A stretch of DNA of 64,000 nt from an uncultured delta proteobacterium (GCA_963827685.1 CAWHBU010000005.1:32001-96000), one strand, 5' to 3'. Shown: positions 14,944-42,221, counted from the stretch's first letter. A program made the numbers and translations. The notes: generated from the letters alone by a model not told the origin.

Positions 14944-14963
14944 AAAACGTCGCGGGGTAAAAG

Positions 14964-23103: not shown

Positions 23104-23436
23104 TTAAATATGGCAACTGTTCATTTAAATGGGATTAGTGTTCATTATAATGAATTATTACCACCCGGTCAAGCTCCGCTTTTCTCTATGCTTTTCTCCA
23201 ATGTGAACCCACCCCCAATTAGAGTTTGACTGAATAATGGAAGCACCCAATAAAATTGTGCTTCAAAAATTCAGTCAACGACTACTCAACGACTCTGAGA
23301 CCCAATAAATCAATTACTCAATGACCTAATAACTTGGTTCGAGGTTTAATCTGTTCGCTTCGCTCTATGCCCTTAGCGCCATGCTTCAGGGCAGGGCCAA
23401 CTTTTTTATGGATGCCACCCCTTGGATATGGTTTAT

Positions 23437-24153
23437 TTACCCTTTCACTGAATGCTTATGAGTTTTGACCTCCCGGGCCCCCATGGCCATGACGTTATAG
23501 ATTGACGGTAGGGTTGAAATGTAGCGGTCACATGCGTCTATTTTTTGTCCCAATAGTCTTTCCCACTCGATAATCTCGTTTGCCATCAAGCATATAACAT
23601 CAGAATAGTCGACGGTCTGAAAAAGCTTTCTCCACTGATTGTTGTCAACTGGTAGCGCCACTTCGGGAAAAACCGAGAATAGAAGCTTACTAGCCCCTAC
23701 CAACCCCAAAGATGTTTCACTCATGCATAGGGGTAGCAGTTGTTTGAACATGTACCACAATTTTCCCGCAACCTGTTTTCTTTCGACCTCCGAAACTTCA
23801 ACAAGAACTCGCTCTCGAGTGGCAATTGGCCGGCTGATTAAAAACTTTTTCAGGTCAAGGACAGATTCCCCGATGGCCTTCCATGATTCGCTTAATATTT
23901 CTCGATCATTGTCAAAACCTTTTCTATTGAACACCCTCACCCCTTTAAAAGGCCCTGTACGCGTCATTTTGAAATTAGACATAAGTTTTGCAGCATTCTT
24001 AAGAAATATGCCCTTATCTATCCGGTCTTGAGTGGCGCCGATAATTTCTTGTACGGTCAAGCTGTAACTCCGGCCGAATTTTTCCAGGCATTTTTCTATG
24101 TAAGCCTTAGGATGGGGGTTGCCTGAATTATCAAATAGGACTTTCATATTCAT
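23437..24153 (-). CDS. Hypothetical protein
   Basis: 238-aa ORF with RBS; GLVGASKLL..FPEVALPVD segment reminiscent of HhH-like proteins. Confidence 0.7.
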   Translation of the reverse strand: MNMKVLFDNSGNPHPKAYIEKCLEKFGRSYSLTVQEIIGATQDRIDKGIFLKNAAKLMSNFKMTRTGPFKGVRVFNRKGFDNDREILSESWKAIGESVLDLKKFLISRPIATRERVLVEVSEVERKQVAGKLWYMFKQLLPLCMSETSLGLVGASKLLFSVFPEVALPVDNNQWRKLFQTVDYSDVICLMANEIIEWERLLGQKIDACDRYISTLPSIYNVMAMGAREVKTHKHSVKG

Positions 24154-24195
24154 GAATTCCCTTTCAGGTTTGCACCTGATCGAAACGCGAAGAAA

Positions 24196-24993
24196 TCACT
24201 TGATCCCCAGAATCCACCCCTCGACCTCTGCCACCGTGCGCTCAGCAAGCGTCAGAGACGGCTTGAAAAACTCTGCAAGGCTGCCGTCAAGGTCAGCGTG
24301 GCGCATCCAGGCAGCGACCGAGTAGGCGTCGTGCTGATCGCCACTGCGCCCTTCTCGCTCGAAGTTGTGTCTCCACAGGGAGGGATAGACCTCCGCTATC
24401 ACCGACCGCCCGGCCAGGATATCCCAGCCGTCAAATGGCCAAAAATAGATCTGATCGTGTAACTGCTGTCGAAGATAGCGTAACCACGGCAGTCCAGCAT
24501 GGGTGGACTTTGCCACTGCCCCTTGCACATCGAAATGAAAAACTGACTTGGCCGATCTGGCTCGTACTTCAGTCAACCGCCTCCAGCGAGGGTTGCCAGT
24601 ACGGTTTGCCCCATTGCCGCATATGCCCTCACGCACGAATTCGACATAGGTATTGTCCCCGTCAGTCGGCCAGTGCCGCTGAAAGTCATCTAGAAAGGCC
24701 GGCCAATCAGGTGGCAAGCCATGAGCCTGAAAATACTGTATTGGAAATGAAAAACCATGGTCGAGGCCGACCAGCGTTACCTTTCCTTCGGAAAGCCTTT
24801 CTACCAGCCATTCAGCGATGCCGCGCCGCGTCCAATATTTGCGAGGACTTGCCGGCGGTTCAACCTCCATGGGCAAGGTTTCTCGATCCGCCATATAGAC
24901 CTGCAGACCCTTCAGACTTGATGTCGGAGTCTTTGCACCGGAATAGTCGATTCCAATGTACTGTTTAAAGGCCGGATTACGTACGCTATTCAT
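24196..24993 (-). CDS. DUF429-like predicted RNase H-fold protein
   Basis: YIGIDYSGA, VGLDHGFSFP, IAEVYPSL, DQHDA. Confidence 0.72.
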   Translation of the reverse strand: MNSVRNPAFKQYIGIDYSGAKTPTSSLKGLQVYMADRETLPMEVEPPASPRKYWTRRGIAEWLVERLSEGKVTLVGLDHGFSFPIQYFQAHGLPPDWPAFLDDFQRHWPTDGDNTYVEFVREGICGNGANRTGNPRWRRLTEVRARSAKSVFHFDVQGAVAKSTHAGLPWLRYLRQQLHDQIYFWPFDGWDILAGRSVIAEVYPSLWRHNFEREGRSGDQHDAYSVAAWMRHADLDGSLAEFFKPSLTLAERTVAEVEGWILGIK

Positions 24994-25371
24994 GTCTGCG
25001 GACTCCTCCTCGAAAAAAACATCTCAGCCCCACTCTCTTCTTGCATATATCGAATTATCGTTGCCCGATATCATATGGTTGACTGAATTTTTCAGTCAGG
25101 CAGGAATTAATTCGTGAGGTGGAATCAGAAAATGCCGCCCACATGACTTGACTGAAAAATTCAGCCAGGCGTTACGAACTTCCTTTGAGCTTTCAGACTT
25201 GAGCTGATCGCGATGCGTGCGTTTGCGAACGGCCAACTTTTTTATGGATGACACCAGGGATCAGTATTTAATAACCTAACTTGTTGAATGCTGAGACCGG
25301 ACCCTGAGCCGCTAATGGAAGTAATCCCAGGCTTTCCGTGGTAGCTCCGATTTCAGTGAAACTTTCATCTA

Positions 25372-25920
25372 TTAAAACCTGTTTCTGTGTAACCAACTGA
25401 ATTCGGATCGCTTCGGAGGAAGAGAGGGTTTCTCCCCTGGTTCCCCGATCTTCAGAATGGCAGCTAACTCATAATCTTCTGGAATACCAAGGATTTTTTT
25501 AACCTCCTTTTCCTGCTCCCCCCAAAAGACCACGATCCCACTTCCCAAACCATCGGCAACCGCAACCAAAGACATATTTTCGATGCAAAGCCAGGCACTT
25601 GCCGCCGCCCCTTTCTGATGGCAGACTGCAACAGCACTCGCATTCTCGAATGATTTCCTCTGACCGACCGCCCTCTCTTGAACTTTATCCTGTCCTTCTC
25701 CAGCACGAGGAGGCATCGTTAAGCTAAGCTGATACTTTCGTTCCGCAATTTGATCGATAGTCTTTTGATCATCAATAATAATGAACTCCCAGGGCTGAGA
25801 ATTTCCGGCTGAGGGTGCCTGGGTGCCCGCCAGAATAATTTTCTTGAGCTGTTCTTCCGAAGCCTTCTTCTTAAAAATGCGAATTGTTCTCCTCTTTGCG
25901 ATTACTTCATGCATTTCCAT
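25372..25920 (-). CDS. Nitroreductase family protein
   Basis: RRTIR.F, APSAGNSQPWEF, ENMSL.A...GLGS. Confidence 0.93.
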   Translation of the reverse strand: MEMHEVIAKRRTIRIFKKKASEEQLKKIILAGTQAPSAGNSQPWEFIIIDDQKTIDQIAERKYQLSLTMPPRAGEGQDKVQERAVGQRKSFENASAVAVCHQKGAAASAWLCIENMSLVAVADGLGSGIVVFWGEQEKEVKKILGIPEDYELAAILKIGEPGEKPSLPPKRSEFSWLHRNRF

Positions 25921-26553
25921 ATGTCGTCTCCTTTCGTAAATGTTATGTATCTCTAAGCTCTATCCCGTAAGAGGCGCCAACGAAGTGAAGAATGTTGAAC
26001 GGAGTCCTTTCCTTCCCCATATATATTAAAAGTCTACATAATCAGAATGGTGGCGTCAATATCACCATTGGCTTCAGCAAGGAAGAGATCGGACACGGCT
26101 TGGAATGGATGGAAGATCTGTTCGGAGAAAGACAGGGGTTGTCACGTGAATCTCTGACTTTTTTGTAATCATCAGGTTGGCGGCATATCGTCATCTCGCT
26201 CACCCCGAGTTCTTGGCCAAGTCGACTTGAAATAAGCCTTTGCTCCGGGTTCGGCCAGGAGAAAGCGGAATCTGGGGGTAATACCATGTCTCCTGCTTCT
26301 CAACCATCGATTCCTCGATGCCCCAACAAGTGGTTTATTGTTGACGCTGTGCTCCATGCTCTTTTTAGTTTTAAATTCCGCAATCAGCAATCCGAAATCC
26401 CTGCCTCCGCCGGAGCGGCTTCGCGCAGGCAGGCGCATTCTGCAATCGAATGGGCCAACTTTTTTATGGATGACACCGAAGTTTTTGAATAATTAGTTTG
26501 TATCTATCTGTTATTAAAAAAATATGAGAACCGTCCCCAAATAATTTATCAGT

Positions 26554-27020
26554 TTATTTTTTTGAAGTCCTTTGACTTAGGTTTTTCACAAGTTCCTTGC
26601 CTAGCGCGAGGCACTTTTTCTTCGCTTCGTTGCTAATGGGACGTTCACTTCCTACCGTCTCCCCCACCTGCTGGAAGAAGCGCTGAGCAAGGGATTCGAA
26701 AGGCTGCCTCACCTTCCCGCCACCACCACAGGAAAAGAAAAGGACAGCCGGTTTTCCTTTGACAGGCTTGCCCGATTGATCCCACAGGTAAATATCATCG
26801 AAAAAGGTCTTAACCGTGCCCGCGACGTATGAGAAATAGTCAGGGGTCCCGATCGCAACCCCATCGGCGGACAAAAATTCTTCCAGCGTGACCCGCCGCT
26901 CGTTTGTGTTAATGAGGTTAACTTCAGTCCCCGCTTCCCGACCCCCTCCGCAAGTGCTTCTGCAAGCATCTTTGTATTCCCATACTGCTGGCTGTGATAA
27001 ACAACAATAATTTTCCCCAT
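26554..27020 (-). pseudogene. Flavodoxin/WrbA-like FMN protein, frameshifted near 26940
   Basis: MGKIIVVYHSQQYGNTKMLAEALAEG in one frame continues as REAGTEV...IGTPDYFSYVAG in another. Confidence 0.82.
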
Positions 27021-27083
27021 AGTCTTCCTCCTTAACAATAGACAATCCAAACTATTTTATGGATGACAGGTAGACGTCTTAAA

Positions 27084-27252
27084 TTATTCATTGATTGGCA
27101 GGGTATGGATTCGGAGACGAGTCTGCTCAAACACTACGACACTCCCCTGCTCCAGTGCCTCCTGGATCATCGGGAGATTTGACAACAAGAGAGCAATTTG
27201 TTTTTCTGGTCGGCGATCTGATCCCCTTCTGAAAAGAATCAAGGAACTTCAT
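27084..27252 (-). pseudogene. DUF5615 PIN-like toxin with an internal deletion
   Basis: MKFL start overlapping the DUF433 stop, joined out of frame to [51 protein letters not shown]. Confidence 0.72.
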
Positions 27253-27479
27253 GATCCAGTCACCAGTGGGAGTTCCCGCTCTCGCACCGCCTCGGCAGCA
27301 TACCGGAGGCCTTCTTGGAGATCTTCAGCCTCGAGATCTGGATATGCTCTGAGAATCTGTTCCTTTGTCATACCATCTACTATCATCCCCACCACTGTGG
27401 CCACTGGAATGCGTAATCCCCGGATACAGGGTACGCCTCCCATCTGATTGGGATTGATTGTTATTCGTTTGAATTTCAT
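27249..27479 (-). CDS. DUF433 antitoxin
   Basis: RITINPNQMGGVPCIRGLRIPV...YPDL. Confidence 0.93.
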   Translation of the reverse strand: MKFKRITINPNQMGGVPCIRGLRIPVATVVGMIVDGMTKEQILRAYPDLEAEDLQEGLRYAAEAVRERELPLVTGS

Positions 27480-27915
27480 CTAATGAACCTCCCTGAATTT
27501 CAACTAAGTCTAAAAAAGTCGCCTTACTATAAAACTCTTTTAAATCATTATACATGAAATCTTTTATCTTCAAAAGAGAATAAATACAAACCGATGCCAT
27601 GCTCTTTGCCCTTTGCGCTATGCGCGCCGCTGTTATTAGCTTTAGATTCCGCATTCCGCAATCGCCATTCCGCATTTGAATGGGCCAACTTTTTTATGGA
27701 TGACATCATAATTCACAATTCAAGACCTGATACCAAAACTGACACCAAAACTTTGCGCTTATTACGCACCTCGCGTTGCGCATTTTGCGTTATCTTATCT
27801 CTTTGACAATTCTTCGTCAAAGGGAGTTATTCAAAATGGGCGGCCCAAAATATTGAAGGTGGTGTTGATATGGATGCTAAATTTTAAAAATGAGACGCGC
27901 CCCATTTTCAATCAC

Positions 27916-28182
27916 CTATTCATAATGAGTCCACATCCTGATGACCTTGACGGTCTTTATTTCTTGCAAGACTTGGTACACGAGACGGTGTTGAATAGTG
28001 ATGCGACGGGAATAGGCTCCAGAAAGGTCTCCGATCAGCTTTTCAAAGGGTGGAGGGGTTTGAAACGGATTTTCAGAGAGAATGTCAAGTAGTTTTTCGG
28101 CTTTCTGCCTCAGGCCTGCCGCCGCAATTTTCTTTGCGTCCTTCTGAGCTTGCCTGGTGTAGACAATCCTCCACTTTACCAT
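27916..28182 (-). CDS. yoeB: Txe/YoeB family toxin
   Basis: NPF..PP.FEKLIGDLSGAYSRRITIQHRLVY...MWTHYE. Confidence 0.92.
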   Translation of the reverse strand: MVKWRIVYTRQAQKDAKKIAAAGLRQKAEKLLDILSENPFQTPPPFEKLIGDLSGAYSRRITIQHRLVYQVLQEIKTVKVIRMWTHYE

Positions 28183-28418
28183 CCAGGTTTCCCGCTGCAC
28201 TTTCTAACAGCCGTCTTGAGCCCCTTCCGAATGGATTCTCTCATGCCAGGAATAGATAAGAGATAGAGGGTTTCTTGGATGGATCGCCAGTCGCCCTCGG
28301 AAATCAAGATAGCGTTTGACCTCTTTCCCGTAATCTGAATCGGTTCGTGGGATTCTGAAGCCTCGTCGAGCAATTTATAAAGATTTGCCCGAGCTTCTGT
28401 CGCCTTAATCGTTGTCAT
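28176..28418 (-). CDS. yefM: Phd/YefM antitoxin
   Basis: ATEARANLYKL...EPIQITGKRSNAILIS...IQETLYLL; palindrome GTAC-N8-GTAC upstream at 28441-28456. Confidence 0.9.
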   Translation of the reverse strand: MTTIKATEARANLYKLLDEASESHEPIQITGKRSNAILISEGDWRSIQETLYLLSIPGMRESIRKGLKTAVRKCSGKPGW

Positions 28419-28633
28419 ACGAATCACCTCAGTTTATAACGTACATTAAAACGTACGCAATGTCAAGAGATATTCGCTTGGCTCTGAAACCAGACACCAA
28501 GTTCGGAGTGACCTAATAACCCAATAATTAGTTTAATTCCGCACTCCGCAATCCAAAATCCCTGCCTACCGGCAGGCAGGCGCATTTGGATACACCAACT
28601 TTTTTGTGGAGGCCACCATAATTCACATTTCAA

Positions 28634-30254
28634 CGGCCTGTTGCTCAAAAGCCCAATTCAAAAATATCTGACAGTTTAAGTTTCGATGAATGATAGCCGG
28701 GGGTAAATAGAACCAAATAGCACCATTTGGCCAATTTTAAAGCTCATCAGCTCCTTAAAATCTGAAAAAGACCTTATCTCCCTTGTCACAGCCCCTTTGA
28801 TCTGCTCCATCATTACCGATGGACTTCTCTTTAGGTAAGATCCATACCTCAGCAAAACCTCAATGTTCTGGACAGCAGAGATCAGGTATTCCTGTATCTG
28901 CACCCGCCAAAGCCCTCTCCATCGTGCCCGGTCATATCCATACCGCGTCCCTCTGGCATAGGAACGCTCCATCAAGTGTTGCCTCATTTTGATATCCCGC
29001 TTCGCTTTGGCCGATCGACTCGCCTCTCGCATCCTGTCTAGATCTTCCTGCCTCAGATGTCGCTTAATTGTCCGACCCGACTTGTTCTTGGTACACTGCT
29101 CTCTTAAGTCACATACCGCACAAATCTTCTTGGGCGCAGCGTAATCTCTACTTTGCCGACTCATATGTAATGACCTAGGCTTCAACCGATGCCCAGCTGG
29201 ACAACGATAGGTGTCACTCTCCCGATCATACTCAAACCGCTCTTCCCCAAAGATATTCTGCTTTTCTGTACGCTTCAATGAAATTTCCCTCAAATCCGGC
29301 ATGTGGGCCTCTACTCCTCTATCATGACAGGCCAAAAAGTTCTCGATCGTCCCGTATTTGCTGTCGGCCACCACCGTATCCGCCTTGACCCCTGTATTTA
29401 AATGGTGGCTCTCTATCAGAGGAATCATCTCATGCGCTTCATTGACATCTCCTGTTGTCGTCTCGATCGCCGTGATCACTTCACTCCGCTCATCCACGGC
29501 CCGATGTACCTGATAGGAGAGTTTGGGCTTGCCACGATTCACTATCGATGCATCCGGATCGGTCGTTGAAATGTATCGGCTGTTCTCTTTAACGTATCTC
29601 CTGGAGGAATCCGTGCTCTCGCTCTTTTCCTCTAATCGTGCTTCCAGCTTCTTGTAGCCCTCCTGGAGTTGAACCTTCAACGATCGCGTGTCGATCACGG
29701 AGTTGTTCGATGCATCCGCATCCACCAAGCTCGAATCCACAAAGATCTTTCTGCCGTCCACTAACCCCGCCTCCACACATTGCCACACCATTCGCTCAAA
29801 AAATCCCCTAAACGCCTCTACTCCCCACCGCGCCCGGGCTTTACTCAATACACTGTGATCCGGCACCTCGCTGTCTATGTCGTACCCTAAAAACCATAGC
29901 CAGTCTAAACGCATGGGGATCGTTTCCATTAACTCTCGTTCCGATCGAACATTGTAAAGAACTAACAGCAACATCATCTTCAGGATCACAGGAGGGGGAA
30001 TGGACACATTCCCATTGCCTCCATAGGTATCTCTGACTTCGGCATAGATGAAGTTAAAGTCAATCTGCTCCTGGATCTTTCTCAGAAGGTGTGTCCGGGG
30101 AACTCTTTGGTCCAGGTTCATATGATGATAGAAGATCTTCGGCTGAATTCCTGTCTGTTGACCCATCATGGCAAAATCTCCATTCCTGATTTGTCTTGCC
30201 ATGCTTATAGCTCGAATGTATAATCGTTGCAAGCATCATTTGGGCAACAGCCCG
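28634..30254 (-). mobile_element. IS1182-family insertion sequence, 1621 bp
   Basis: IRs CGGCCTGTTGCTCAAA / TTTGGGCAACAGCCCG; 4-bp duplication TCAA at 28630-28633 and 30255-30258. Confidence 0.9.
28676..30169 (-). CDS. IS1182-family DDE transposase
   Basis: SERELM..WFLG..PDHS.LS..R, TTDPDA, ADSKYG, YRCPAG zinc region. Confidence 0.92.
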   Translation of the reverse strand: MMGQQTGIQPKIFYHHMNLDQRVPRTHLLRKIQEQIDFNFIYAEVRDTYGGNGNVSIPPPVILKMMLLLVLYNVRSERELMETIPMRLDWLWFLGYDIDSEVPDHSVLSKARARWGVEAFRGFFERMVWQCVEAGLVDGRKIFVDSSLVDADASNNSVIDTRSLKVQLQEGYKKLEARLEEKSESTDSSRRYVKENSRYISTTDPDASIVNRGKPKLSYQVHRAVDERSEVITAIETTTGDVNEAHEMIPLIESHHLNTGVKADTVVADSKYGTIENFLACHDRGVEAHMPDLREISLKRTEKQNIFGEERFEYDRESDTYRCPAGHRLKPRSLHMSRQSRDYAAPKKICAVCDLREQCTKNKSGRTIKRHLRQEDLDRMREASRSAKAKRDIKMRQHLMERSYARGTRYGYDRARWRGLWRVQIQEYLISAVQNIEVLLRYGSYLKRSPSVMMEQIKGAVTREIRSFSDFKELMSFKIGQMVLFGSIYPRLSFIET

Positions 30255-30475
30255 TCAAGACCTGACACCGGAGCCTATTACTTTCTTGAGCCACTATGCC
30301 ACCAGACGCTGCCAACTTTTTTATGGATGACCTAAATCCCTTTTAAGATTCTTATAATTTTATGGACGCCCCCCTTTGATTATCAAGCAAAGTGTATAAT
30401 GTAGCTTTGACCCCAAAGTCTTTTTCAAAGTCTCTTTCCGTGTGAAGAATCTGGTCCGCTCTCATGGTTTTCAGG

Positions 30476-33177
30476 CTACTTGGCTCTTTCGGGGGGTTGG
30501 CCCAAAAGCGCTTTTAACTTCTCCATAGCCTTTCCGAAGTCTTCCCATCTTCCCTGTCGAATAGCCTGCTCAGCTTCTTTGAGATCCTCTCTTGCCCGGT
30601 TCAGCTGTTCGCTCTGAACGGGGGCAGAGACTTTCCCGGCCTCAGGTTGAGCGGTGCCGAAAACGGCCTGAAGGGCTTGATCAAGAGTTGGCTCCATAAC
30701 CACTTTGTTCCCGGATACAATAATAATCCGTTTGAGCTGCGGGATGTTTGTGCCCTCCGCCGTCAGGTACACAGGCTCGACGTAAAGGAAGGAGCTATCG
30801 ATGGGGATAATAATCAAGTTGCCACGGATGACCCGGGAGCCTTTCTGGTCCCAAAGGGACAACTGCCCGGAGATCAGCGTGTTCTGATCGATCATCGCCT
30901 CGATCTGCATGGGGCCCAGAATCAGCCGCTCCTTTGGGAGTTGATAAAGGAGCATTTTCCCATATTCAGGAAAATCGCAATTGGCAGCCATCCAGGCGAT
31001 CATGTTGTCTCTGTTCTGAGGCGTAAAGGGACTCATCAGAAGATACATAAGCTCTTTCTGGCCGGGAAGCCGCATCAGGATATAATAGGGGATCATCGGG
31101 ATGGTATTGCCGGCATATTTCTCCTGTGCAAAACTCCAGAGATCTTCTCGGTTGTAGAAGACCTGAGGATCCGTCATGTGATAGGTCCTGTACATGTCGG
31201 CTTGAATCGTGAAAAAGTCCTCAGGGTATCTCAGATGCCTTTTTAAATCCTGCGATAACTCCCCCAATTCCCTGAAGACCCCCGGAAACGCCTTGCGGTA
31301 AACGCCGAGGACCGGGTCATCGACGTCCATTACATAAAATCGAACAGAGCCTTCATAGATATCCACAATCACCTTCACGGAGTTTCGGATATAATTCAAG
31401 CCAATCCCCAAGGATCTTGATTGGGGTTTTGAGTAGGGGAAATGGTCGGAAGTTGTGTAGGCATCCTGAATCCAGTAAAGCTTCCCTTCGCTCAGGACGA
31501 GGTAAGGATCTTTGTCCAGTAGTAAAAAAGGGGCGATTCTCCTAACTCGGTCCTGGACACTTCTCCAAATCTGGATACGACTCTCAGGGCCGAGATAAGA
31601 GGTGAGCAGTATATTGACGTCTGAGAAATTCCATGCAAAAAGAACTCTTTTCCAGTAGCTGTCCAGAGGAATGCCTCCCTTCCCCTGATAGCTGGTATAG
31701 ATATTTTCACTCCCCTTCGGATAGTCAAATTCTTTCATCTTGGTCCCGACGATCCGATAACCCGGGGTCTTTTCGCCGAAGTAGATGGCAGGCTGCTCAA
31801 CATTCAGGCCGTACTTGGAGACGGGCGGGATATTTTCGATAATATACTGCGGGAATCCTCCTTCGGCAATCTTCGAGACGAAGTTCATGACGAGACCATA
31901 GCCGTGGGTATATTGAAGACGCTCATTGACCCACGTCCTGGCCTGTTCGGGAAGCTCGGGCGCCAACTCCCGAGCTGGAGACTCCACCTGATGATAGCCG
32001 TCCTCCGTATGGTAACGGTCAACGTCAACCTCATTGAATCGATAATAGAGACGCATCTCCTGAGTTTGCCGATAGGTCTGCAGTAGTGGCCGCCAATCCC
32101 AGAGGCGGATATTCTGAATGGTCTCCTGGTGGTCAGAGACCTGCCCGGGGGTGAGCTCCGATAACCCGGGGTACGTTTTCACTTCTATTTTATCGAGTTG
32201 AAAGGCCTTGCGCGTAAAATCGATATTATACTTGAGATAAGGGGTCTCCAATTTCAGCTCGCTGGGCTCCACCTCGAATTTTTGCACGAGACCGGGGAGC
32301 AGGATGATAACCACAAAATAGAGGAAAAAATAGCTTCCAATGCCAATGAGGATCGCCCTGAACCGCCGTTTCAAAAAGTTTAAAAGAACCCAAATACCTA
32401 AGGCAATCGACGCAAAAAGCATGATCCAGAGACTGATCCTCGTGACGTTATAAGCCGTATATCCCACTCCGTAGACTACGCCAAGGGTGGAGTAGAGGAG
32501 CTCAAAACGATCCAGGTAATAACCCCACACCCAGTTTCCAATGAAGAGAAGAAATAGGATAGCCACATGCCCCAGGGGTGTCCAATTTCTCCTTTGAGGA
32601 GAATTTACCCCGAACCGAAGCATGCCAAAGGACATGTATCCGATAGAGATGAGCAAAAATGTTGTGAAGGTCAGACCTGTCAAGCCGTTCTGGATCATCT
32701 CATAAAAAGGAAGTCTGAACATATAGAATCCGACATCCGCACCAAAGATGGGATCGGAGAATCCGAAGGTCCCCCCCAGCGGAAGCGCAGATAAGTATCC
32801 CATTCAGAATAGTAGATAAGACCAAAAATGAGTGCTGGAACACATGAGATGATGGCGGTAATGAATTTTCCGGTTTTTGCTGTGATCTCCCCGGCATTCT
32901 CAATTACCAGCACATCTTGTCTCCCAACGCTCTTCAGCCCGGCCCTCACGAGCAGACGGAGATTGCCCCAGAAATAGAGGAATACTAAGATAAAAGCCAG
33001 ACCGAACCATCCCAGCTTAATGAACAGCAACTGCCAGAAGATGGTTTCATACCCTAATTCCCCCATCCAGAGCCATTCCACCAGCCTGCCTGTAATGAGC
33101 GATAGAAAAATCAGAACGAAAATCACCACGGCGAGAACGTACCAAAAAATCCTTCTTCCTATCGCGAGCCTTTTCAT
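30476..33177 (-). pseudogene. UPF0182 family membrane protein split by a frameshift in a G7 run
   Basis: N-terminal WLWMGELGY in one ORF; DPIFGADVGFY, NIRLWD, YTHGYG, NYIRNSVK in the other; G8 at 32771-32777 would join the frames. Confidence 0.88.
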
Positions 33178-33266
33178 TACTATCTACCTCCTCTCCATCT
33201 TTATCTGGGGTTCCTCTCACCCATCCTTATAGAACCCTCCAGCCAGCGAGCCGGGGCGATGGATGG

Positions 33267-33365
33267 ATGCTCTATGCGCTACCTGTCCTCCGTAGCAGAA
33301 CGAACTGCGTAGGAGGATGCTCTTTGCGATCTTTTGTTTGCAGGGCCAACTTTTTTAGGGATGAC
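33267..33365 (+). repeat. About 99-bp direct repeat (second copy 38057-38155) containing a hairpin and the boundary motif
   Basis: Two mismatches by eye; hairpin TCCTCCGTAGCAG...CTGCGTAGGAGGA. Confidence 0.88.
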
Positions 33366-33622
33366 AGTCTTCTTAAGGCTAATCTCTTTCTTAGGAGTTG
33401 ACTGAATTTTTCAGTCAGAGACTTTGGACCCCTTGACTACAAAATTGACTCAGTTGTTACGTAATGACTCTCGACTTTACCACTTGCCTGATCACTCAAT
33501 CGCTTATTGACTCAACGCCCGCATTACCGCCCCACTTTTTTATGGATGACACCGGTTTGCAATAGGTCTATTTCTTAAACAACTTAACTACGTCCCTGGG
33601 TGCGTCCTTAGATCATTTCAGC

Positions 33623-34879
33623 TTACTTGTTTTGTTCCTTCAACCTCTTCTCGTAATTAAGGCGTACTTCTTTGAGTTCAGCGGGTGTCCTGCAAATTTC
33701 TTCAGCTTGAATGGACTGCATATTCTTTAAAATAGCGAACCCATACTTTTCGCTGTAGGCTGTCTCCCCCCAGACCACATCCTCAACTACCTGATGGTCC
33801 TCTTTTCTTACGATCTTCCAACCTTCTGGGGTTTCCCACGCAAGCGGCTCCTTTTCCACTGCAGCAATCACTCTTTCCGTGTCCGTTGTGCCGGCACGCT
33901 CTATGGCGGCCTTCAGGAAATAGACACCTGCATAGGTTTCTTCAGCCATATAGTCAGGATATTCTTTAAACCTCTCCTGGTAAATCTTGACGAACCTACG
34001 GTTCATAGGAGAGTCCGGGGTAAGGAAAAAGTAACGGGCTGAAACGAACAAACCCTCGGGCATGCTCTTTCCCAGAGGAATGAGCGTCTCAAGGGCTGCC
34101 CCATCCGGAAAAACAAACTTGATTTTGTCAAATAGGCCCAGAGGTAACGCTTGCTTAATGAAAGTGACTGCGTCCATACCCCACAAAGGTGACCAGATGG
34201 CTTCTGGTTTGGCTTCTATAATCTTTTGGATGAAAGGAGTATAGTCAGGCTCGGTTAACTTGGGCCATAACTCACCGACAATCTCGATATCTGGCCGCAG
34301 CTCCTTCAATTTATCCTTGAATGAATTCCAGGATTCGTAACCATAACTGTAGCCTGGTCCAATGCACATCCAACGCTTGAATGGTTTACTCGCCATGAAA
34401 TAGGCACCGGCCCGAGAGTGCATCATGGCATTGCTCAAAGTGCTGAACATGTACCGGTTGAACTTGGCATCTGTCAGCGAATTTGTCGCCGACTGTGTTA
34501 GGACCAGAATCTTCTTTTGCTGTTCGACAAGATCCGCCATGGCCAGAGCCACACCGCTGGAAGTGGGTCCAATAATGAAATCCACTTTGTCCTGAGTGAT
34601 AAATTTCTTAGTGATCTGCACGCCCTTATCCACTTTTAACTCGTCATCTTCAAAAATGGCTTCAACCTTTCTCCCTAAAATGCCGCCCTGCCCATTAATT
34701 TCGTCAAGAGCTAACTGGATTGCCTGTGTTCCGTGCTTACCGTATCCTCCCATCTTCCCGGACATGATGAAAACCACACCGAGCTTGATCGGCTTTTTTT
34801 CAGCCGCCCAGCCTGTTCCGAATACCAAAACAAAACTAATAAAAAGAACGCCTATTCCTATGATCCATCTCCCTCTCAT
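33623..34879 (-). CDS. Orphan ABC substrate-binding protein, branched-chain amino acid (Peripla_BP_6) type
   Basis: Signal peptide, PIKLG...EIN..GGILGR, GPTSSG; no permease next to it. Confidence 0.9.
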   Translation of the reverse strand: MRGRWIIGIGVLFISFVLVFGTGWAAEKKPIKLGVVFIMSGKMGGYGKHGTQAIQLALDEINGQGGILGRKVEAIFEDDELKVDKGVQITKKFITQDKVDFIIGPTSSGVALAMADLVEQQKKILVLTQSATNSLTDAKFNRYMFSTLSNAMMHSRAGAYFMASKPFKRWMCIGPGYSYGYESWNSFKDKLKELRPDIEIVGELWPKLTEPDYTPFIQKIIEAKPEAIWSPLWGMDAVTFIKQALPLGLFDKIKFVFPDGAALETLIPLGKSMPEGLFVSARYFFLTPDSPMNRRFVKIYQERFKEYPDYMAEETYAGVYFLKAAIERAGTTDTERVIAAVEKEPLAWETPEGWKIVRKEDHQVVEDVVWGETAYSEKYGFAILKNMQSIQAEEICRTPAELKEVRLNYEKRLKEQNK

Positions 34880-34959
34880 AGTTTCCTCCTTTTTTATTTG
34901 GGAATGCCACTTTTTTATGGATGACACCGCATGCTCTGCATCTCGAAAGGGTATCGATG

Positions 34960-35217
34960 TTATCTCCGGTATACTTCACGACAATGTCGCACTCGCATGA
35001 TCCTCACGGCCCTTGTCTTCTCATCAATCTCGTAAAGGACACGGTAGTCTCCAACTCTAATTCGCCAATCATTCTTTGAACCGGCAAGCTTGCGGCATCC
35101 CGAAGGTCTTGGATTTTCTGCTAAGGCTCTAATCTGGGGAATGATCCGGTGGAAGGTGGTTATGGGTAGACGCTTGAGGTCATTTTCAGCAGCTCTCTCA
35201 AGATACACCTCATACAC
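34960..35217 (-). CDS. RelE/ParE family toxin
   Basis: LAENPRPSGCRKL...WRIRVGDYRVLYEID. Confidence 0.92.
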   Translation of the reverse strand: MYEVYLERAAENDLKRLPITTFHRIIPQIRALAENPRPSGCRKLAGSKNDWRIRVGDYRVLYEIDEKTRAVRIMRVRHCREVYRR

Positions 35218-35419
35218 TTGGATGATACTCCTTCAAAAAGTCCTCGAGCCTTCTAAACTTAAGAGGTCTCTTCCTCATTTCTTTGAGCAAATTCAAATCC
35301 TCAAGGTCCTCCAGACGCTCTAACATTTGTCGATACTCATCGATATCAAGAATGACCGCAAAGGGTTTACCCTCTTTCAGGACAATCTCAGGAGTTTTCC
35401 TCTTCATCTTACCTTTCAT
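35210..35419 (-). CDS. Phd/YefM-like antitoxin
   Basis: GKPFAVILDIDEYRQMLERLEDLEDL; overlaps the RelE start. Confidence 0.85.
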   Translation of the reverse strand: MKGKMKRKTPEIVLKEGKPFAVILDIDEYRQMLERLEDLEDLNLLKEMRKRPLKFRRLEDFLKEYHPSV

Positions 35420-35764
35420 GTCTTAACCTCCCATTTGTTAAGCGCCATATTATAATACATCTATTTTTGTTAAATTGTAAAGCCTATTCCACACTTCAAG
35501 AACGAAACAAACATTTGCTCCTTTACTTTGAGCTTTCAGGTTTCAGCTTTACGCCATGCGCGCTGCTGTTATTAGCCTTGAATTCCGCATTCCGCAATCC
35601 GCATATGAAGTATCCTTCTCCCAATCACCGTGTCCCCGTTTCCCCTCATCTGCTCTTGCGTCTCCCCATCTCCTCGTTTCTCTGTCTTCCTATCTTCCTA
35701 TTTTTCTTTTGGGCAGGCCAAACTTTTTTATGGATGCTACCTGTGAATCGTGCAGACCTGAACC

Positions 35765-36763
35765 CTAGGAGTGGGTTTCAATTTCCATGAGGTCCTTTCC
35801 AACGATAATTTTTCCGCCGAAGTTTTGCCTGGGACCCTCCGCCCACATCTCTTCGGTGACAGAAGGATCATCGGATGGGACAAAATGCGTGAGAACAAGG
35901 GTTTTTACTCCGGCTTCCTTCGCCACCTTGCCCACATCGATATGTGTTGTATGGGAGGCGACGATATGTTCGAGAAGTCTATCCGCATTGGGAACGCGGG
36001 CAAGAAGTCGGGCAAGGGAGGGCTTATGAAGGACCTCGTGGACGAGGATATCGGCACCTTTAGCAAGCTTGATCAGATTGTCAGAGGGGGTCGTGTCGCC
36101 GGAGAAGACGATCGATGTTTTGGCGGTGTCAAACCGGTATGCAAAGGAGGGTACAACCGGAGGGTGGTTTACGAGGGCTGCCGTGACTTTCACATTTTCA
36201 TCCTGCATGACCGGTCCATTTTCCGAGAACTCATGAACGTGTACCATGGGGGCCAGAGGAGGTCTCCCTTCGTCAGGGATCCTGATATTGATGTCATAGG
36301 CATTGAGCTCAAAGAAGGCGTTCGTCATCTTCTCAAGCGGAGGGGGTCCATAGGCATCGATCCTTCCTTTAAACCCGGACGCCCATGCATTGTAAACAAG
36401 ATTTCCGTATTCGAGGTTATGGTCAGAATGGTGATGGGTGATGAAAATGTGTTTTAGGGCCGCAAGGGAGATACCCGCAAAGACGAGCTGTCTGCTGACA
36501 CCCCCTCCACAATCAACGACGTAGGGAATGTTATTCACAATGACGACCCATGCTGACTGGTTTCGCACTTTATTGGGGCGGGGTCCACCTCCCGTCCCTA
36601 ATAGGATCAATCTTACATCTGATTTCTTCGTGGGACTGAGATCCTTGGTCTGGGCAAACAGATCCTTTGCCAGCAGGGTGCCGGCAAAAGCAGCCATCGA
36701 GCCGGTTAGGAATTGCCTCCTGGACAAACCTTTGGTTTTGTCGCCTTTTTGTCGATCCGACAT
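35765..36763 (-). CDS. Tat-exported MBL-fold metallohydrolase (RNase Z/arylsulfatase-like)
   Basis: SRRQFL, LLGTGGGP, THHHSDH, FSGDT, LVHE, HT. Confidence 0.9.
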   Translation of the reverse strand: MSDRQKGDKTKGLSRRQFLTGSMAAFAGTLLAKDLFAQTKDLSPTKKSDVRLILLGTGGGPRPNKVRNQSAWVVIVNNIPYVVDCGGGVSRQLVFAGISLAALKHIFITHHHSDHNLEYGNLVYNAWASGFKGRIDAYGPPPLEKMTNAFFELNAYDINIRIPDEGRPPLAPMVHVHEFSENGPVMQDENVKVTAALVNHPPVVPSFAYRFDTAKTSIVFSGDTTPSDNLIKLAKGADILVHEVLHKPSLARLLARVPNADRLLEHIVASHTTHIDVGKVAKEAGVKTLVLTHFVPSDDPSVTEEMWAEGPRQNFGGKIIVGKDLMEIETHS

Positions 36764-36956
36764 CTGCGAGCCCCTCCTTTCCTGATTATTATTTCCACAC
36801 AACAATCGATCTTGACGCCATGCGCCTTGCCCTTGGCAATATGCTCCAGGGCAGGCCCAACTCTTTTATGGATAACACCCGGATTCGATTTTATGAGTAA
36901 TTCAACTTAGTCAACAACGGCCCCTTTGTCCTTCTACAATGCGCTGCTCATCTGGT

Positions 36957-37265
36957 TTAACGCATCCTCTTAAAAACGGAGTAAGCCTCCATAAAGGTCG
37001 GAAATCCGGCGGTCTGTATTAACAGAAGAAGTGCATGCTTAATCTCATCATCGGTCAGCCCAGATTCCTTTCCTTTCAGGATATGAGTCTCCAGAGATAA
37101 AGGATGACCGCTTGCCCCGGAAACGGCAATCTTGATCAGCCAGCGGATTTTCTCGGGCAGAGGGCCAGATTGCTCATGAATCGTTTTCCCCAGTGCTTCA
37201 TGGCCTTTGTAGACGGCCGGAAACTCTTTCTTGAATTCTTTAAATGGCTCGTGAATTTCTTTCAT
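36957..37265 (-). CDS. Carboxymuconolactone decarboxylase family protein
   Basis: GPLPEKIRWLIKIA...H...G.T.DEI.HA..L..TAGFP. Confidence 0.85.
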   Translation of the reverse strand: MKEIHEPFKEFKKEFPAVYKGHEALGKTIHEQSGPLPEKIRWLIKIAVSGASGHPLSLETHILKGKESGLTDDEIKHALLLLIQTAGFPTFMEAYSVFKRMR

Positions 37266-37483
37266 CTCGGCTCTCCTTTCCTCCCTGAAACGATCAGCGA
37301 TTTTAACCTTCAAATTGGCGTTCTAAGTTTGGAATCAACCCCTTTTTTCTAGAAATGATTTGTTCGATCAAGCAGTTCACTTGGTCCGACCCGAGATCCC
37401 CGTAAACGCGCTTGCCTTTTTTGGAAATGATTAATTTGATCAACCCGTTAACTTGGTCCGAGCATAGGCCCAACCCTCGTTGA

Positions 37484-37972
37484 TTATTCTGTTACGCCTT
37501 TACCTTCTGTCCGTGTTGCTGTCCATTCCCCTGACAAACCTGACGGCCACGCTGGATTTGAGAAGGTAATGGTATATGTTCCAATCCCCCCTCCGTCCCT
37601 CAATTCACCCTTGACATTCAGGGTAAACGGAGAATCCTGATACCCCGAGGGGGCGGAAGAATTCGTCGCTGTGCCCGTAGCGGTGAACGAGAGAGAAGAG
37701 CCCGAGATGATCACCCTTCCTCCAGTGAAAGGACATGTCGTGGAGTCTAGATACGTCCACTCTCCGGTAACGGTCACCGTCCCATCTGATTTCTTAGTCA
37801 AAGTCCAAACCCCTTTGCCACCACCACGATCAACAATCGATTTCCAGCGCTCTGTGGTCATGGCCGGGCGGTCATCATTACTGCTGGCCCCGCTCGGCCC
37901 ATACCCAATAACAAATAGGCTGGAGATGAGCGTTACGGCAATAACGGTACATACCAATGGATATCGTCTCAT
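37484..37972 (-). CDS. Hypothetical exported beta-rich protein
   Basis: Signal-like N-terminus; Gly/Thr-rich repeated G.W strands. Confidence 0.7.
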   Translation of the reverse strand: MRRYPLVCTVIAVTLISSLFVIGYGPSGASSNDDRPAMTTERWKSIVDRGGGKGVWTLTKKSDGTVTVTGEWTYLDSTTCPFTGGRVIISGSSLSFTATGTATNSSAPSGYQDSPFTLNVKGELRDGGGIGTYTITFSNPAWPSGLSGEWTATRTEGKGVTE

Positions 37973-38203
37973 GATCTATGCCCCCTTCGATACTCTTTAA
38001 TTCAAGACCCGGCCCCCTCTGCCACTTTTTAAGTTTTTACCTCTGATCTTTACACCATGCTCTATGCGCTACCTGTCCTCCGTAGCAGAACGAACTGCGT
38101 AGGAGGATGCTCTTTGCGATCTTTTGTTTGCAGGGCCAACTTTTTTGTGGATGACCCCTCTCTTGTTTTATGAAATGTGTGATTGCAAGACCTGGCCCCC
38201 CGT

Positions 38204-38271
38204 CCCGGCTATCATTCATCGCAACTTAAATTATCAGATATTTTTGAATTGGGCTTTTGAGCAACAGCCCG
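38204..38271 (+). mobile_element. Remnant 3' end of the same IS1182-type element, opposite orientation
   Basis: Near reverse complement of about 28634-28700, ending GCAACAGCCCG directly before TCAAGACCTGACACC. Confidence 0.85.
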
Positions 38272-38324
38272 TCAAGACCTGACACCGGTGATGACTACGT
38301 CCCTGTGTCTCTTGTGTCTCTACG

Positions 38325-38893
38325 TCAAATGAACCACGGTGTTTTTTCAAGAACGGGGTTCAGGGTAAACGGCTCCGACTGTCTGAGAAACGCAGCTGTC
38401 AGATAAGCGATGTCCCCAGCGTATTTCAAGGTAATCGGTTCCCCGCAGAATGAATCAGTGGATGCCCAATTCAATTTCGTCAGATTCAAGACTTGTACTG
38501 CCAGGACTCGAAGATCGGGCTCTGCTCTCGGCAGCCCTTCTGGCCGATGAACCCATGCCGATACTTCTAAAGGCTTCGGGGTTCCCAAGGATCGACGGAA
38601 GGGGTTATAGCCGGTCGTTGACAAATATATCCTATTACCTGCAGCTTCTACATAACTTCCACGCCGCAGGCTGCCATCGGTTTCCGGTCGATTGTCATAC
38701 AACCGGACATTGTGATGCGAGTTGATCCATACGAAAGTAAAAGTTCCTTGAGGCCTCACTTTCCGAGCCGCCTCAAGGATTGAGTTCCGATCTACCTTCG
38801 CCAGCTTTGCAGAATAGTGAAAGATGATCCGAGGCGTCGGTGGTAGTCTGTTTCGAAGTTTTGTGAGTGTTTCCTCGACTAGCCGAGGGGGTG
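38325..38893 (-). pseudogene. C-terminal PIWI-domain fragment of a prokaryotic Argonaute
   Basis: RGSYV, LSTTG, GTPKPL, QVLNLTKLNWAS, EPITLKYA..IA, PWFI*; 5' part replaced by HEPN sequence. Confidence 0.82.
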
Positions 38894-38970
38894 AGCAAGT
38901 CAGAAATCTCTTGGCGACTCGTTTGGTGCTCAATGAGCCAGCGGCTTTTTAGCCAGTCTTGCAAGCTCAC
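38894..38970 (-). pseudogene. Truncated HEPN-type partner, about 26 codons
   Basis: MSLQDWLKSRWLIEHQTSRQEISDLL, then the junction to the Argonaute fragment. Confidence 0.65.
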
Positions 38971-39556
38971 GTTTGTCTCCGATGAGGAACAACATGGGTC
39001 CTCTTAAGACAGTGTTGAGGAAATGGTGCCCTGCCGCCACTTTTGATCGGAACTCCGCAGGAGGATAAACGGTTGGATTGATCTCCCGGCCAAGTGTCTT
39101 TTGAGCCTCGCTAAGCGATGACACAATCTCAGCAAATGTTACCTTGCCCACGACCAGGACATCCACATCGCTATCCCGGTGTTCTTCACTGCGCGCCATG
39201 GATCCATAGATGAAAGCCACATTGATGCGGCCACCCAAAGGCGCCAAGGCAGCTTGCAGCGTTGCCCCCACTCCAACCGTCTTGACGACCAGGTTTTTCA
39301 GCTCTGCAAATACAGGGCAACGGGGATTCGCCTGGTAATAGACCTGCCGCCCACGAACGATGCGCTGGATAATCCCAGCGTCTGAAAGCTGCTTCAACTC
39401 CCTCTGCACTGCACCCAGCCCGACTCCGGCGGCGCGAACGATTTGCCGCAGATAAAAAGCATCGTCGATATGGCTGTAGAGTAAAGAAAGGACTGCCCGG
39501 CGGGTCTTACCAAACAGGGTCCTGGATAGGTTATCGCTGTCAGGCAACGTACTCAT
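38930..39556 (-). CDS. ArsR-type wHTH plus MNT antitoxin (copy A)
   Basis: LFGKTRRAVL, YLRQI, FIYGSMAR....SDVDV, LGREINP. Confidence 0.88.
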   Translation of the reverse strand: MSTLPDSDNLSRTLFGKTRRAVLSLLYSHIDDAFYLRQIVRAAGVGLGAVQRELKQLSDAGIIQRIVRGRQVYYQANPRCPVFAELKNLVVKTVGVGATLQAALAPLGGRINVAFIYGSMARSEEHRDSDVDVLVVGKVTFAEIVSSLSEAQKTLGREINPTVYPPAEFRSKVAAGHHFLNTVLRGPMLFLIGDKRELARLAKKPLAH

Positions 39557-39825
39557 TGTGGGTACGATTGTACCTCTTTTAGGTACGATTTTCAAGACAC
39601 TCCTTTTCGTTCACCCCTGCAAGACATTCACTGTCAGGTCTTGAAATTTGAATTAACCTCATCCCCCCCTCACCTTTCAATTGCTACCAACTTCTCGCAT
39701 AGCGCAGAGCGCATGGGGCATAGCGTAAATGAACTGCTGTGAATCGTGAACCGCGAGGCGTGACTCGTGATTCGTGAAATGCGTGAGAGTTAAAACAAAA
39801 AAGCCCTTTACCTTTTGAGAGCCGG

Positions 39826-41352: not shown

Positions 41353-41925
41353 TCAAATTTTCCTCTTCATTTTTGTGATATAAGGAACTTTAGCTTCCTC
41401 AACTAGGAATCCAATCGGGCGCTTCTTGGATTCCGGTGGTTTCATCAGTTCCCTAATGGCGTCAAAAACCACCCTGAACTGAGCATCGTATTTCTTTTCC
41501 AATGCGTCAAGTTTACGAGCCAAATCGGCATGGGATGCAAGTATCCTTCGAAGACGAACGAAAGCCCGCATGATCTCGATGTTAACCTGAACGGCTCTCT
41601 CACTATTTAATACACTCGAAAGCATTGCTACACCTTGCTCTGTAAACGCATAGGGTAGGTAACGCCGCCCTCCTCGCCCCTCCTTTGAGGTCGCAAATTG
41701 CGACCTCAAAAGGTGAGTCTCTGACTCTGTCAATTGAAACATGAAATCTTCCGGAAACCTGGAAAGATTACGCCTTACCTGTTCATTCAGTCTTTTAGTT
41801 GTTACCCCATAGAGTTCCGCAATATCGGAATCCAGCATAACTTTATGACCACGAATTAGAAGTATCAACCGTTCAATGTGCTCAATAGGAATCAAGGATC
41901 TGTCTTTTGACATTTTATCATTCAT
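41353..41925 (-). CDS. ORF6N domain DNA-binding protein
   Basis: [41 protein letters not shown]. Confidence 0.93.
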
Positions 41926-42009
41926 TAACTCTCCTGACCTTTCAATTGTTCAGATGTTCTCCCATAACCGTGAGTCGGGATTCGTGACTCGTGAAATTCG
42001 TGAGAGTTA

Positions 42010-42085
42010 AAACAAGAAAGCCCATTCGTTTTGAGAACAGGCTTAAGTTCGATCACACAATTTTTCAATTTTTGAATCCCCCACC
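42010..42085 (-). terminator. About 75-bp repeat containing a minus-strand intrinsic terminator (other copies about 45261-45337 and 49338-49413)
   Basis: Minus strand AAGCCTGTTC-loop-GAATGGGCTT followed by a U-rich tail; three similar copies. Confidence 0.75.
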
Positions 42086-42221
42086 GGCCCCACTATATCA
42101 GAAACGCAATCGGATGACAATCAAAAATGCTGATTGCGGAACTCGGATTGCGGAATATCAATTCAGTAAACTCTCATTCTTTTCCAACTAATTCTGTTAC
42201 TGATCCGATTCCCGGAAAGGC

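Follow-up and report, generated by a model that had tools for sequence, protein, structure and literature searches.

Integrons are, to our knowledge, the only well-understood system by which single genes are stockpiled and reshuffled, and they are defined by the folded attC site together with the integrase IntI. Two further systems offer what we take to be partial parallels, namely the pdif/Xer modules of Acinetobacter plasmids, in which small cargo including toxin-antitoxin pairs is bounded by a site of about 28 bp and the recombinase is encoded elsewhere, and the sfx/Rci shufflons, in which a tyrosine recombinase presumably acts on short asymmetric sites with one conserved arm, many of them repeated within a few kilobases. 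Here we describe a locus of an uncultured delta proteobacterium which shares the architecture and the evolutionary behaviour of integrons without either of their defining parts. The stretch of DNA analysed, referred to as the window, comprises 64,000 nucleotides (GCA_963827685.1 CAWHBU010000005.1:32001-96000) and corresponds to positions 32001-96000 of contig C5 in a host genome of 5.23 Mb and 14 contigs (G000). The element in question is a 26-bp motif, repeated in one orientation between co-oriented genes, and the real integrons of the same bacterial family provide an internal contrast.

The 18-nt core of the motif, CAACTTTTTTATGGATGA, matches the window 13 times at no more than three mismatches, always on the plus strand, compared to an expectation of 0.19 and a maximum of 2 in 100 dinucleotide-preserving shuffles. 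Eight of the 13 copies are also recovered with the 26-mer at up to three mismatches, for which no match is expected. The copies span positions 23394-38158 (cores 23398-38154), and no further copy occurs elsewhere in the window. As the open reading frames (ORFs) of this region lie on the minus strand, the motif reads GGTGTCATCCATAAAAAAGTTGGCCC on the strand of the genes. All 13 copies are intergenic, located among minus-strand ORFs at 13 to 208 nt past the preceding stop codon, which bears out the original prediction of 13 co-oriented, intergenic copies within 15 kb. The additional claim that the repeat is confined to this stretch holds for the window, but not for the genome, which carries four further arrays.

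The five arrays (C1 261-266 kb, C4 503-536 kb, C4 726-729 kb, the one in the window on C5, and C7 180-190.5 kb) are each uniform in motif orientation and contain 36 of the 41 genomic copies with at most two mismatches on 1.42% of the bases. Other small repeats of this genome are mostly found outside the arrays, as seen for a heptamer pair (8 inside, 41 outside), a GC hairpin (5 and 142) and a G-rich box (11 and 60). Rather than being scattered genome-wide in both orientations, the motif is clustered and one-directional. Single copies do follow ordinary operons, for instance at C4:17688 between convergent genes.

The motif is conserved family-wide and across genera. The core with at most one mismatch is present in 26 of 61 relative genomes. 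Within the host family 23 of 36 genomes carry it, within the host genus 13 of 14, and two of 24 genomes from other families have a single copy each; a reversed control pattern gave no match in any genome searched. Loci with an exact match belong mostly to metagenome-assembled genomes (MAGs) assigned to Thermodesulfobacteriota, Syntrophales, Syntrophaceae or "delta proteobacterium", and the number of stray single exact matches in unrelated taxa lies, by rough estimate, within chance. The exact 18-mer occurs in at least 120 metagenome contigs. A search bearing on a possible phage origin gave no exact 18-mer match among viral contigs. Two co-oriented copies were also seen on a contig assigned to an uncultured Chloroflexia MAG (L063), for which mis-binning or transfer are both possible.

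The segments between neighbouring motifs behave as units. Among 142 distinct inter-motif units, drawn from 49 multi-copy loci and the arrays of the host genome, the median length is 1080 nt; 113 have their longest ORF in the direction of the motif, 20 have it in the opposite direction and nine have none. The median distance from stop codon to motif is 54 nt and that from motif to next start codon 174 nt, the latter with a 10th-90th percentile range of 27-447 nt (n=128 units). Motif orientation is uniform in 43 of the 49 multi-copy loci; the odd-orientation copies examined (L038, L040) are three-mismatch matches within genes, and inverted motif pairs around a gene were sought and not found.

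The order of these units is almost entirely reshuffled between relatives. Units of the window recur in other genomes on different contigs and in a different order, as illustrated by G010:C2:186-206 kb, where flavodoxin, exported-protein, UPF0182, YefM/YoeB, empty and CMD units are rearranged with respect to the window. For 139 pairs of homologous, non-identical units, shared neighbours are very rare: where both neighbours are known, homology extends to the downstream one in 2 of 48 cases and to the upstream one in 2 of 56. The DUF433 unit, with its motif 13 nt past the stop codon, is followed by four different neighbours in four genomes. Within the host genome, a second version of the stretch 25363-26478, which takes in the nitroreductase unit and motif copy 3, stands in the array at C4 503-536 kb with 98% identity, and the duplication starts at the motif edge; behind the C4 nitroreductase unit the motif is lost and the unit continues into a second gene. 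The orthologous locus of G010 has a single motif at the place of copy 1, followed by an island of 12 kb, in contrast to about 57 kb in the host. The array of the window forms the first 15 kb of this variable island, which extends from window position 23239 to G000:C5:111824, past the window end.

Many alternative joints were also found in contigs of three DNA metagenomes of other studies, aligned to the region. Contigs of runs X1 and X2 skip from position 27683 (copy 5) to 30311 (copy 7); 20-21 nt are compatible with either side, and the shorter side measures 38-39 nt. In run X3, a contig skips from 27688 (copy 5) to 34910 (copy 10), with 17 nt compatible with either side and 41 nt on the shorter side. 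Further joints had short sides or extra letters at the junction and were not relied upon. Bins 23656-24983 had no coverage in X2 and X3, and the RNA run X19 covered little apart from UPF0182, gaps from which no conclusion is drawn. Both between relatives and in metagenome contigs, rearrangements thus fall at the motif, which was the breakpoint check proposed for this region, and the co-oriented, single-gene-size units of changing order support its description as a cassette-like array. Several units are closer between species than the adjacent conserved flank: the UPF0182 unit is 95-97% identical to its copies in G004, G005, G009, G010 and G012, where the flank reaches 84%, 91%, 95%, 89-90% and 82%, respectively, which hints at transfer but may also be due to constraint.

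An alignment of 102 distinct copies, from the host genome and 16 loci of relatives, defines the site itself. Information is confined to positions -4 to +21, at about 1 to 2 bits each, and drops to about 0 bits in the flanks. Among 175 copies which belong to flank families, 177 pairs share the left flank only, 287 the right flank only and 14 both, so that left and right flanks assort independently across the motif. The identity excess tied to the left flank amounts to +0.35 to +0.56 up to position -3, is weak to about +3 and nil beyond. The excess tied to the right flank sets in weakly at +19 and becomes strong at +21.

Our best reading, on which we are evenly poised, is that these arrays represent a new integron-like cassette system served in trans, in which the 26-bp motif would act as a family-specific junction signal. 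A unit would usually consist of one gene or one toxin-antitoxin pair with the motif shortly after its stop codon, and units would be stacked head to tail in several chromosomal arrays, to be excised, inserted, reordered and exchanged between species by crossover within the motif. Excision between two direct copies would give a circle with one motif, which could then insert at another copy. The enzyme, as it is not encoded beside the arrays, would have to be supplied in trans, either by a distant chromosomal gene or by an unbinned plasmid; MAGs seldom include plasmids, which makes an extrachromosomal source plausible. After capture, the spacers, mostly the 5' leaders, would have been colonised by the ordinary small repeats of the genome. 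We infer that the exchange is carried out by a dedicated site-specific recombinase rather than by homologous recombination, because the motif stays intact amid turnover, is tied to mobile arrays and, at 26 bp, presumably makes a poor substrate for homologous recombination; any identity assigned to this enzyme is likewise provisional. Of the site-specific capture in trans that had been proposed for this region, the array behaviour and the breakpoints at the motif hold, whereas the dedicated trans-acting enzyme is still conjectural.

Several observations weigh against such a system, regarding both the joints and the enzyme. Joints at a 26-bp repeat could also arise by homologous recombination, and the relatives are kin, so that counts among them are not independent. 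Positions 6 and 16 of the core, which vary, show no linkage to the left or the right flank, and therefore a single crossover point could not be mapped. No excised circle is present among the assembled metagenome contigs (contigs, not raw reads). Among 131 pairs of homologous units, the homology approaches the upstream motif to 30 nt or less, in both members, in 13 pairs and the downstream motif in 27; four pairs do so at both ends, and in 95 it ends more than 30 nt from both bounding motifs, which implies that units fuse, split and gain insertions. Moreover, left and right flank families are in part mobile repeat modules which, by inserting separately next to the motif, might produce some of the flank linkage on their own; however, gene-level neighbours differ at the motif too, as in the DUF433 case. 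Apart from insertion sequence (IS) elements and cargo, no gene family is common to the sides of the five arrays. Comparison of 20 recombinase-type proteins of the host with 96 motif loci returned only one IntI, four to five REP-associated tyrosine transposases (RAYTs; REP, repetitive extragenic palindrome) and one IS110-type protein, and a home-made, uncalibrated hidden Markov model (HMM) of tyrosine recombinases, used without a positive control, gave no match in 80 metagenome loci (333 kb). Within the genus, only XerC and XerD are near-universal in motif-bearing genomes, and no tyrosine recombinase stands beside an array. Finally, most tyrosine and serine recombinase cores have dyad symmetry, and the motif is without it.

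Some of these points are shared by the main rival explanation, which we regard as unlikely but not negligible. It holds that the motif is a conserved intergenic element of accessory islands, such as a binding site for a protein of the host or the island, an RNA 3'-end or an insulator signal, and part of mosaic modules resembling bacterial interspersed mosaic elements (BIMEs), with the shuffling being incidental and due to homologous or illegitimate recombination among spacer repeats. The homology ends away from the motifs, the unlinked core positions, the lack of a linked recombinase and the single copies after ordinary operons all fit this explanation, and so does the make-up of the spacers, which are mosaics of several repeat families. 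Upstream of the motif they contain families of 40-60-nt modules, including a G-rich box (GGG[CT]CA...) at 30-60 nt in 24.5% of copies compared to 3-7% in other windows, with a peak of GGGG frequency at -50 to -41; downstream they contain heptamer repeats, GC hairpins and further modules which represent general repeats of the genome. What speaks against it is the restriction of the motif to 1.4% of the genome, where general repeats are genome-wide and a general expression signal should serve core genes too, and the neighbour conservation of only about 4% for a repeat whose 26 bp we take to be the lower limit for RecA exchange. Strict polarity and single-gene unit size are left unexplained by it, and the motif has no Rfam family and no excess of promoters or terminators.

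Decayed copies were observed as well. At G000:C4:506483-507520, behind the duplicated nitroreductase unit, the motif has shrunk to its last four letters after the usual upstream module, and in the next copy a ribosome-binding site stands in place of its 3' half. The idea that elements insert into the motif and leave split halves was considered and rejected, as only a few decayed half-copies were found. GC-hairpin and heptamer (GCGGAAT-type) intergenic repeats are abundant genome-wide.

Co-orientation of motif and genes also raises the question of whether the motif, serving as promoter or operator, could let each unit be transcribed and regulated individually. Two of the 13 window copies lie about 30 nt ahead of a start codon, and the C4 copy with the ribosome-binding site in place of its 3' half would be compatible with such a function. 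Nevertheless, we consider it highly improbable, given that the motif tends to follow a stop codon closely and to stand farther from the next start codon, is present at C4:17688 where no co-oriented gene follows, and is conserved continuously over 25 bp instead of in two boxes. In comparison to shuffles, promoter-like sites (21 vs 18.6) and terminator-like sites (21 vs 16.7) show no excess that would support a sigma-70 promoter or an intrinsic terminator; a terminator-like site is overlapped by 2 of 13 window copies, on the opposite strand. In the copies read, the spacing is one base off that of the sigma-54 consensus as we assume it, and no tRNA-like genes were found. A lead on what binds the motif comes from its core TCATCCA(T/C)A, which resembles what we take to be the DnaA-box nonamer, together with the DnaA-like helix-turn-helix (HTH) of one RAYT, visible as a sub-threshold Bac_DnaA_C match. 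One perfect DnaA-like box lies upstream of dnaA, a number not above chance. An ops-like antitermination role was considered as well; the genome encodes two NusG paralogues, which by ORF reading are next to polysaccharide-type genes.

The closest comparison is that with integrons, including sedentary chromosomal integrons and clusters of attC sites lacking integron-integrases (CALIN). Like these, the motif arrays consist of head-to-tail, co-oriented, mostly single-gene and unrelated units rich in toxin-antitoxin pairs, with a conserved site after each gene, a unit order almost fully reshuffled between relatives, and several arrays per genome without an integrase beside them. It might be assumed that they are integrase-less, CALIN-like arrays whose motif represents an aberrant site of attC or attI type, still served by the IntI enzymes common in the family. 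In line with this, full-length IntI above the family cut-off is encoded in 17 of 61 relatives, and the host retains a C-terminal remnant (C3:782919-783275, model positions 197-315; 191 bits vs a cut-off of 265), which adjoins a Phd/ParE-type pair; a similar remnant was seen in G010 (C1:720662-721045, model positions 188-315, 191.7 bits). The motif contains GTTGGCC, one letter off GTTRRRY, and in G011 a motif array is found on the same contig as IntI, at a distance of 5.6 kb.

The site, however, does not have the structure of an attC. Over 210 copies, the motif is as complementary to shuffled flanks as to its own flanks of 125 nt, with stems of at least 7 nt in a fraction of 0.129 upstream (0.123 shuffled) and 0.114 downstream (0.126 shuffled), and DNA fold energies of 16 copies range from -0.6 to -7.9 kcal/mol for 94 nt. 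Together with the flanks of about 0 bits, the missing partner and the weak folds define the site as a linear, asymmetric 25-26-mer. A simple scan for foldable AAC...GTT pairs found six attC-like sites beside the IntI of G026, which served as positive control, but was negative for the 16 kb of the window array, the 33 kb of the C4 array and two control regions; a stricter first attC scan returned one site beside that IntI and none in the window. GTTGGCC has no RYYYAAC at a fixed distance, and the ATTCAAC found 45 nt upstream in one motif subfamily does not pair. The complementarity, the folds and the scans led us to reject an attC hairpin, in agreement with the original prediction that the repeat is not attC.

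Nor do the IntI genes lead to the motif. The window encodes no IntI, as had been stated, and the genome only the remnant on another contig. In 22 loci around the IntI genes of relatives no motif copy with at most two mismatches was found, IntI and motif presence do not track each other among relatives, and the G011 array is convergent with and downstream of intI, not at attI. Adjacency of motif arrays to IntI was not found, and locus L022, beside an IntI, shows no array. Seven IntI contigs begin a few hundred bases upstream of intI, and four of the seven end in GTT or GTTAG, as would be expected if assemblies break at attI. A canonical integron was observed in G026 (L021, G026:C24:50200-70100, positions 8836-18261), with IntI and six attC-like sites of the GCCTAAC...GTTAGGC type, four of them directly upstream. 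Since attC and attI sites of the ordinary kind accompany the family's IntI genes and the motif is absent beside them, ordinary integrons exist in this lineage and the motif arrays are something else. Also unlike in integrons, the 5' leaders of the motif units are long. On these grounds, an aberrant integron site served by the family's IntI appears very improbable.

If the cassette system is served in trans, candidates for its enzyme may be sought among the recombinases of the host. The genome has 19 matches to tyrosine recombinases, among them XerC and XerD, a tandem pair present three times and the IntI remnant; its Y1 genes comprise 21 of IS200 type and four of RAYT type, and six of seven IS110-type matches exceed the family cut-off. 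No serine recombinase and no TnpB match was found in the host genome, and a search for IS91-type Y2 proteins was uninformative, with no match in the host or in any of 14 control genomes. The top 30 recurrent ORF clusters in the arrays of many genomes, named by likeness to annotated ORFs and not scanned individually, contain toxin-antitoxin and small-enzyme homologues of the window genes and no recombinase-like cluster. A 433-aa HTH protein near two arrays was rejected as a multi-copy IS-type gene, and the ORF6N genes, which recur in or near arrays at five loci, as cargo-like units. These KilA-N-like genes lie just upstream of or within motif arrays (window 41353-42800; G000:C7:193533-194078; L036, L038, L041). 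Among the repeats of the genome are 21 IS200-type copies (a 163-aa frame in 18, a 144-aa frame in three), an IS1182-like element in at least 14 full or near-full copies, and the 433-aa IS-type gene in eight identical copies, one of them split.

A tyrosine recombinase recognising the repeat as a lone XerC-type arm had been suggested before. The probable chromosomal dif site lies at C2:737718-737745 (GTGTCTGATAA-GATATA-TTATGTTAACT), and dif with at most three mismatches is present in 20 of 38 family genomes; G029 has two copies and the other 19 have one each. Compared with this real dif, the motif has no XerD arm and no dyad and matches the XerC arm at 5 of 10 positions (by reading), which led us to discard it as a Xer site. 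The same absence of a XerD arm and of dyad symmetry separates the arrays from pdif modules, and motif copies are direct repeats, whereas pdif sites are alternately inverted. Shufflons differ in that they invert segments between inverted sites within the 3' end of one gene, while the motif forms direct repeats between whole genes, with no Rci-like gene linked.

The other suggested candidate was an HUH/RAYT-type nuclease. The RAYTs of this lineage have a C-terminal HTH; they would bind the motif, nick nearby and move units as single strands. Two of the four RAYT-like genes which the host encodes besides its IS200 elements (G000:C4:98189-99037 and C6:19598-20590; L161, L162) specify proteins of 283 and 330 aa with a C-terminal HTH, confirmed by NCBIfam NF047646 with 94.6 and 83 bits vs a cut-off of 80. 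RAYT genes are found co-oriented in or beside arrays at 4-5 of 96 genome loci and, with a Y1 HMM, as two RAYT-like genes in 80 metagenome loci, by rough estimate a few-fold above a density of about one per Mb. Both L161 and L162 genes are flanked by an inverted G-box, GGGGTCAGGTCT, which also starts the modules abutting about 25% of motif copies; the end of the IS in the window begins similarly. It is nevertheless this box, and not the motif, which flanks the RAYT genes, and the motif is neither palindromic nor provided with a complementary partner. The host's RAYT genes are not near its arrays. Furthermore, the RAYT family occurs in 50 of 61 relatives and is no less frequent where the motif is missing. 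It is encoded by each of the 13 genomes from the two nearest other bacterial families, in which the motif occurs only once, as a one-mismatch copy in G037, and it was not found in G004 and G009, which have 13 and 10 motif copies. A RAYT-type nuclease acting on the motif is accordingly improbable. Systems of REP or BIME repeats with RAYT resemble the arrays in their short intergenic repeats set in mosaics, in the RAYT genes of the genome and in the REP-like G-box beside a quarter of motif copies, but differ from them in that the motif is not palindromic, is array-confined, has one orientation and does not flank RAYT genes.

The features of the array are compiled in Table 1. Pfam assignments agree with the gene content initially read from the sequence as regards the nitroreductase, the flavodoxin-like FMN reductase, DUF433, YefM/YoeB, the IS, UPF0182, the solute-binding protein, the ParE/RelE pair, the metallo-beta-lactamase-fold (MBL) hydrolase, the CMD-family protein and the empty unit. 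Three labels had to be revised: the supposed DUF429 gene belongs to a unit whose ORFs (23437-24153 and 24196-24993) have no Pfam match even at E values up to 5, the "PIN" gene is instead a truncated DUF5615 remnant of 52 aa (E 0.078), and the "Argonaute fragment" corresponds to an ORF without family (38325-38933) followed by a nucleotidyltransferase with HTH (38930-39595). The IS element is a secondary insertion. The UPF0182 gene consists of two overlapping ORFs of 160 and 775 aa, probably owing to a frameshift. The remainder of the island, which lacks the motif, includes the nucleotidyltransferase/HTH gene, SocA/Panacea-MqsA-like genes, two ORF6N genes and IS copies.

Table 1. Motif copies, gene units and associated elements of the array, in window coordinates.
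Feature	Position	Core start	Strand	Basis and remarks
Motif copy 1	23394..23419	23398	-	26-mer and core search; last in transcription direction; adjoins flank syntenic with relative G010
Unit 1: two ORFs (238 and 265 aa) without Pfam family	23437..24993		-	Pfam scan
Motif copy 2	25230..25255	25234	-	26-mer and core search
Unit 2: nitroreductase	25372..25920		-	Pfam
Motif copy 3	26452..26477	26456	-	26-mer and core search
Unit 3: flavodoxin-like FMN reductase	26554..27045		-	Pfam
Motif copy 4	27045..27070	27049	-	Core search, 2 core mismatches; 13 nt past stop, about 30 nt ahead of next start codon
Unit 4: DUF433 antitoxin-like gene and truncated DUF5615 remnant	27084..27479		-	Pfam
Motif copy 5	27682..27707	27686	-	26-mer and core search; joined to copies 7 and 10 in metagenome contigs
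Unit 5: YefM antitoxin and YoeB toxin	27916..28427		-	Pfam
Motif copy 6	28592..28617	28596	-	Core search, 3 core mismatches
IS element, transposase DUF772 and DDE_Tnp_1_6	28630..30269		-	Pfam; among listed matches at least 13 full or near-full copies elsewhere in genome
Motif copy 7	30309..30334	30313	-	Core search; with about 90 nt upstream forms a repeat subfamily of about 115 nt
Unit 7: UPF0182 membrane protein, two overlapping ORFs	30476..33177		-	Pfam
Motif copy 8	33343..33368	33347	-	26-mer and core search
Empty unit: non-coding repeat modules, 159 nt, bounded by copies 8 and 9	33369..33527		.	Present in G010 too
Motif copy 9	33528..33553	33532	-	26-mer and core search
Unit 9: periplasmic solute-binding protein (Peripla_BP_6)	33623..34927		-	Pfam
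Motif copy 10	34903..34928	34907	-	Core search
Unit 10: Phd/RelB-type antitoxin and ParE/RelE-type toxin	34960..35419		-	Pfam
Motif copy 11	35716..35741	35720	-	Core search
Unit 11: MBL-fold hydrolase	35765..36805		-	Pfam
Motif copy 12	36854..36879	36858	-	26-mer and core search
Unit 12: CMD-family protein and 162-aa ORF without family	36957..37972		-	Pfam
Motif copy 13	38133..38158	38137	-	26-mer and core search; first in transcription direction
Solo end fragment of the IS family of 28630-30269, just upstream of array	38204..38290		.	Sequence match

The motif string was not found in the papers searched, and keyword searches returned only integron literature. It is possible, and we propose it tentatively, that the arrays are the work of an undescribed gene-capture system apart from IntI/attC, which would use a linear, asymmetric 26-bp site in double- or single-stranded form and an enzyme acting in trans (perhaps from an unbinned plasmid, or a RAYT-HTH protein or another non-integrase nuclease), and which would build and reshuffle several arrays per chromosome across a Syntrophales-type family alongside ordinary integrons. 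Should no such enzyme exist, a short conserved repeat alone would be able to sustain integron-like shuffling, which bears on the origin of cassettes. If, on the other hand, a dedicated enzyme is involved, the arrays would represent a second, independent solution to gene-cassette capture, and thus a categorically new capture system, as well as the source of a new recombinase with a 26-bp asymmetric site. Such a system would also explain the exchange of toxin-antitoxin and small metabolic genes among uncultured syntrophs of peat, wetland and sediment.

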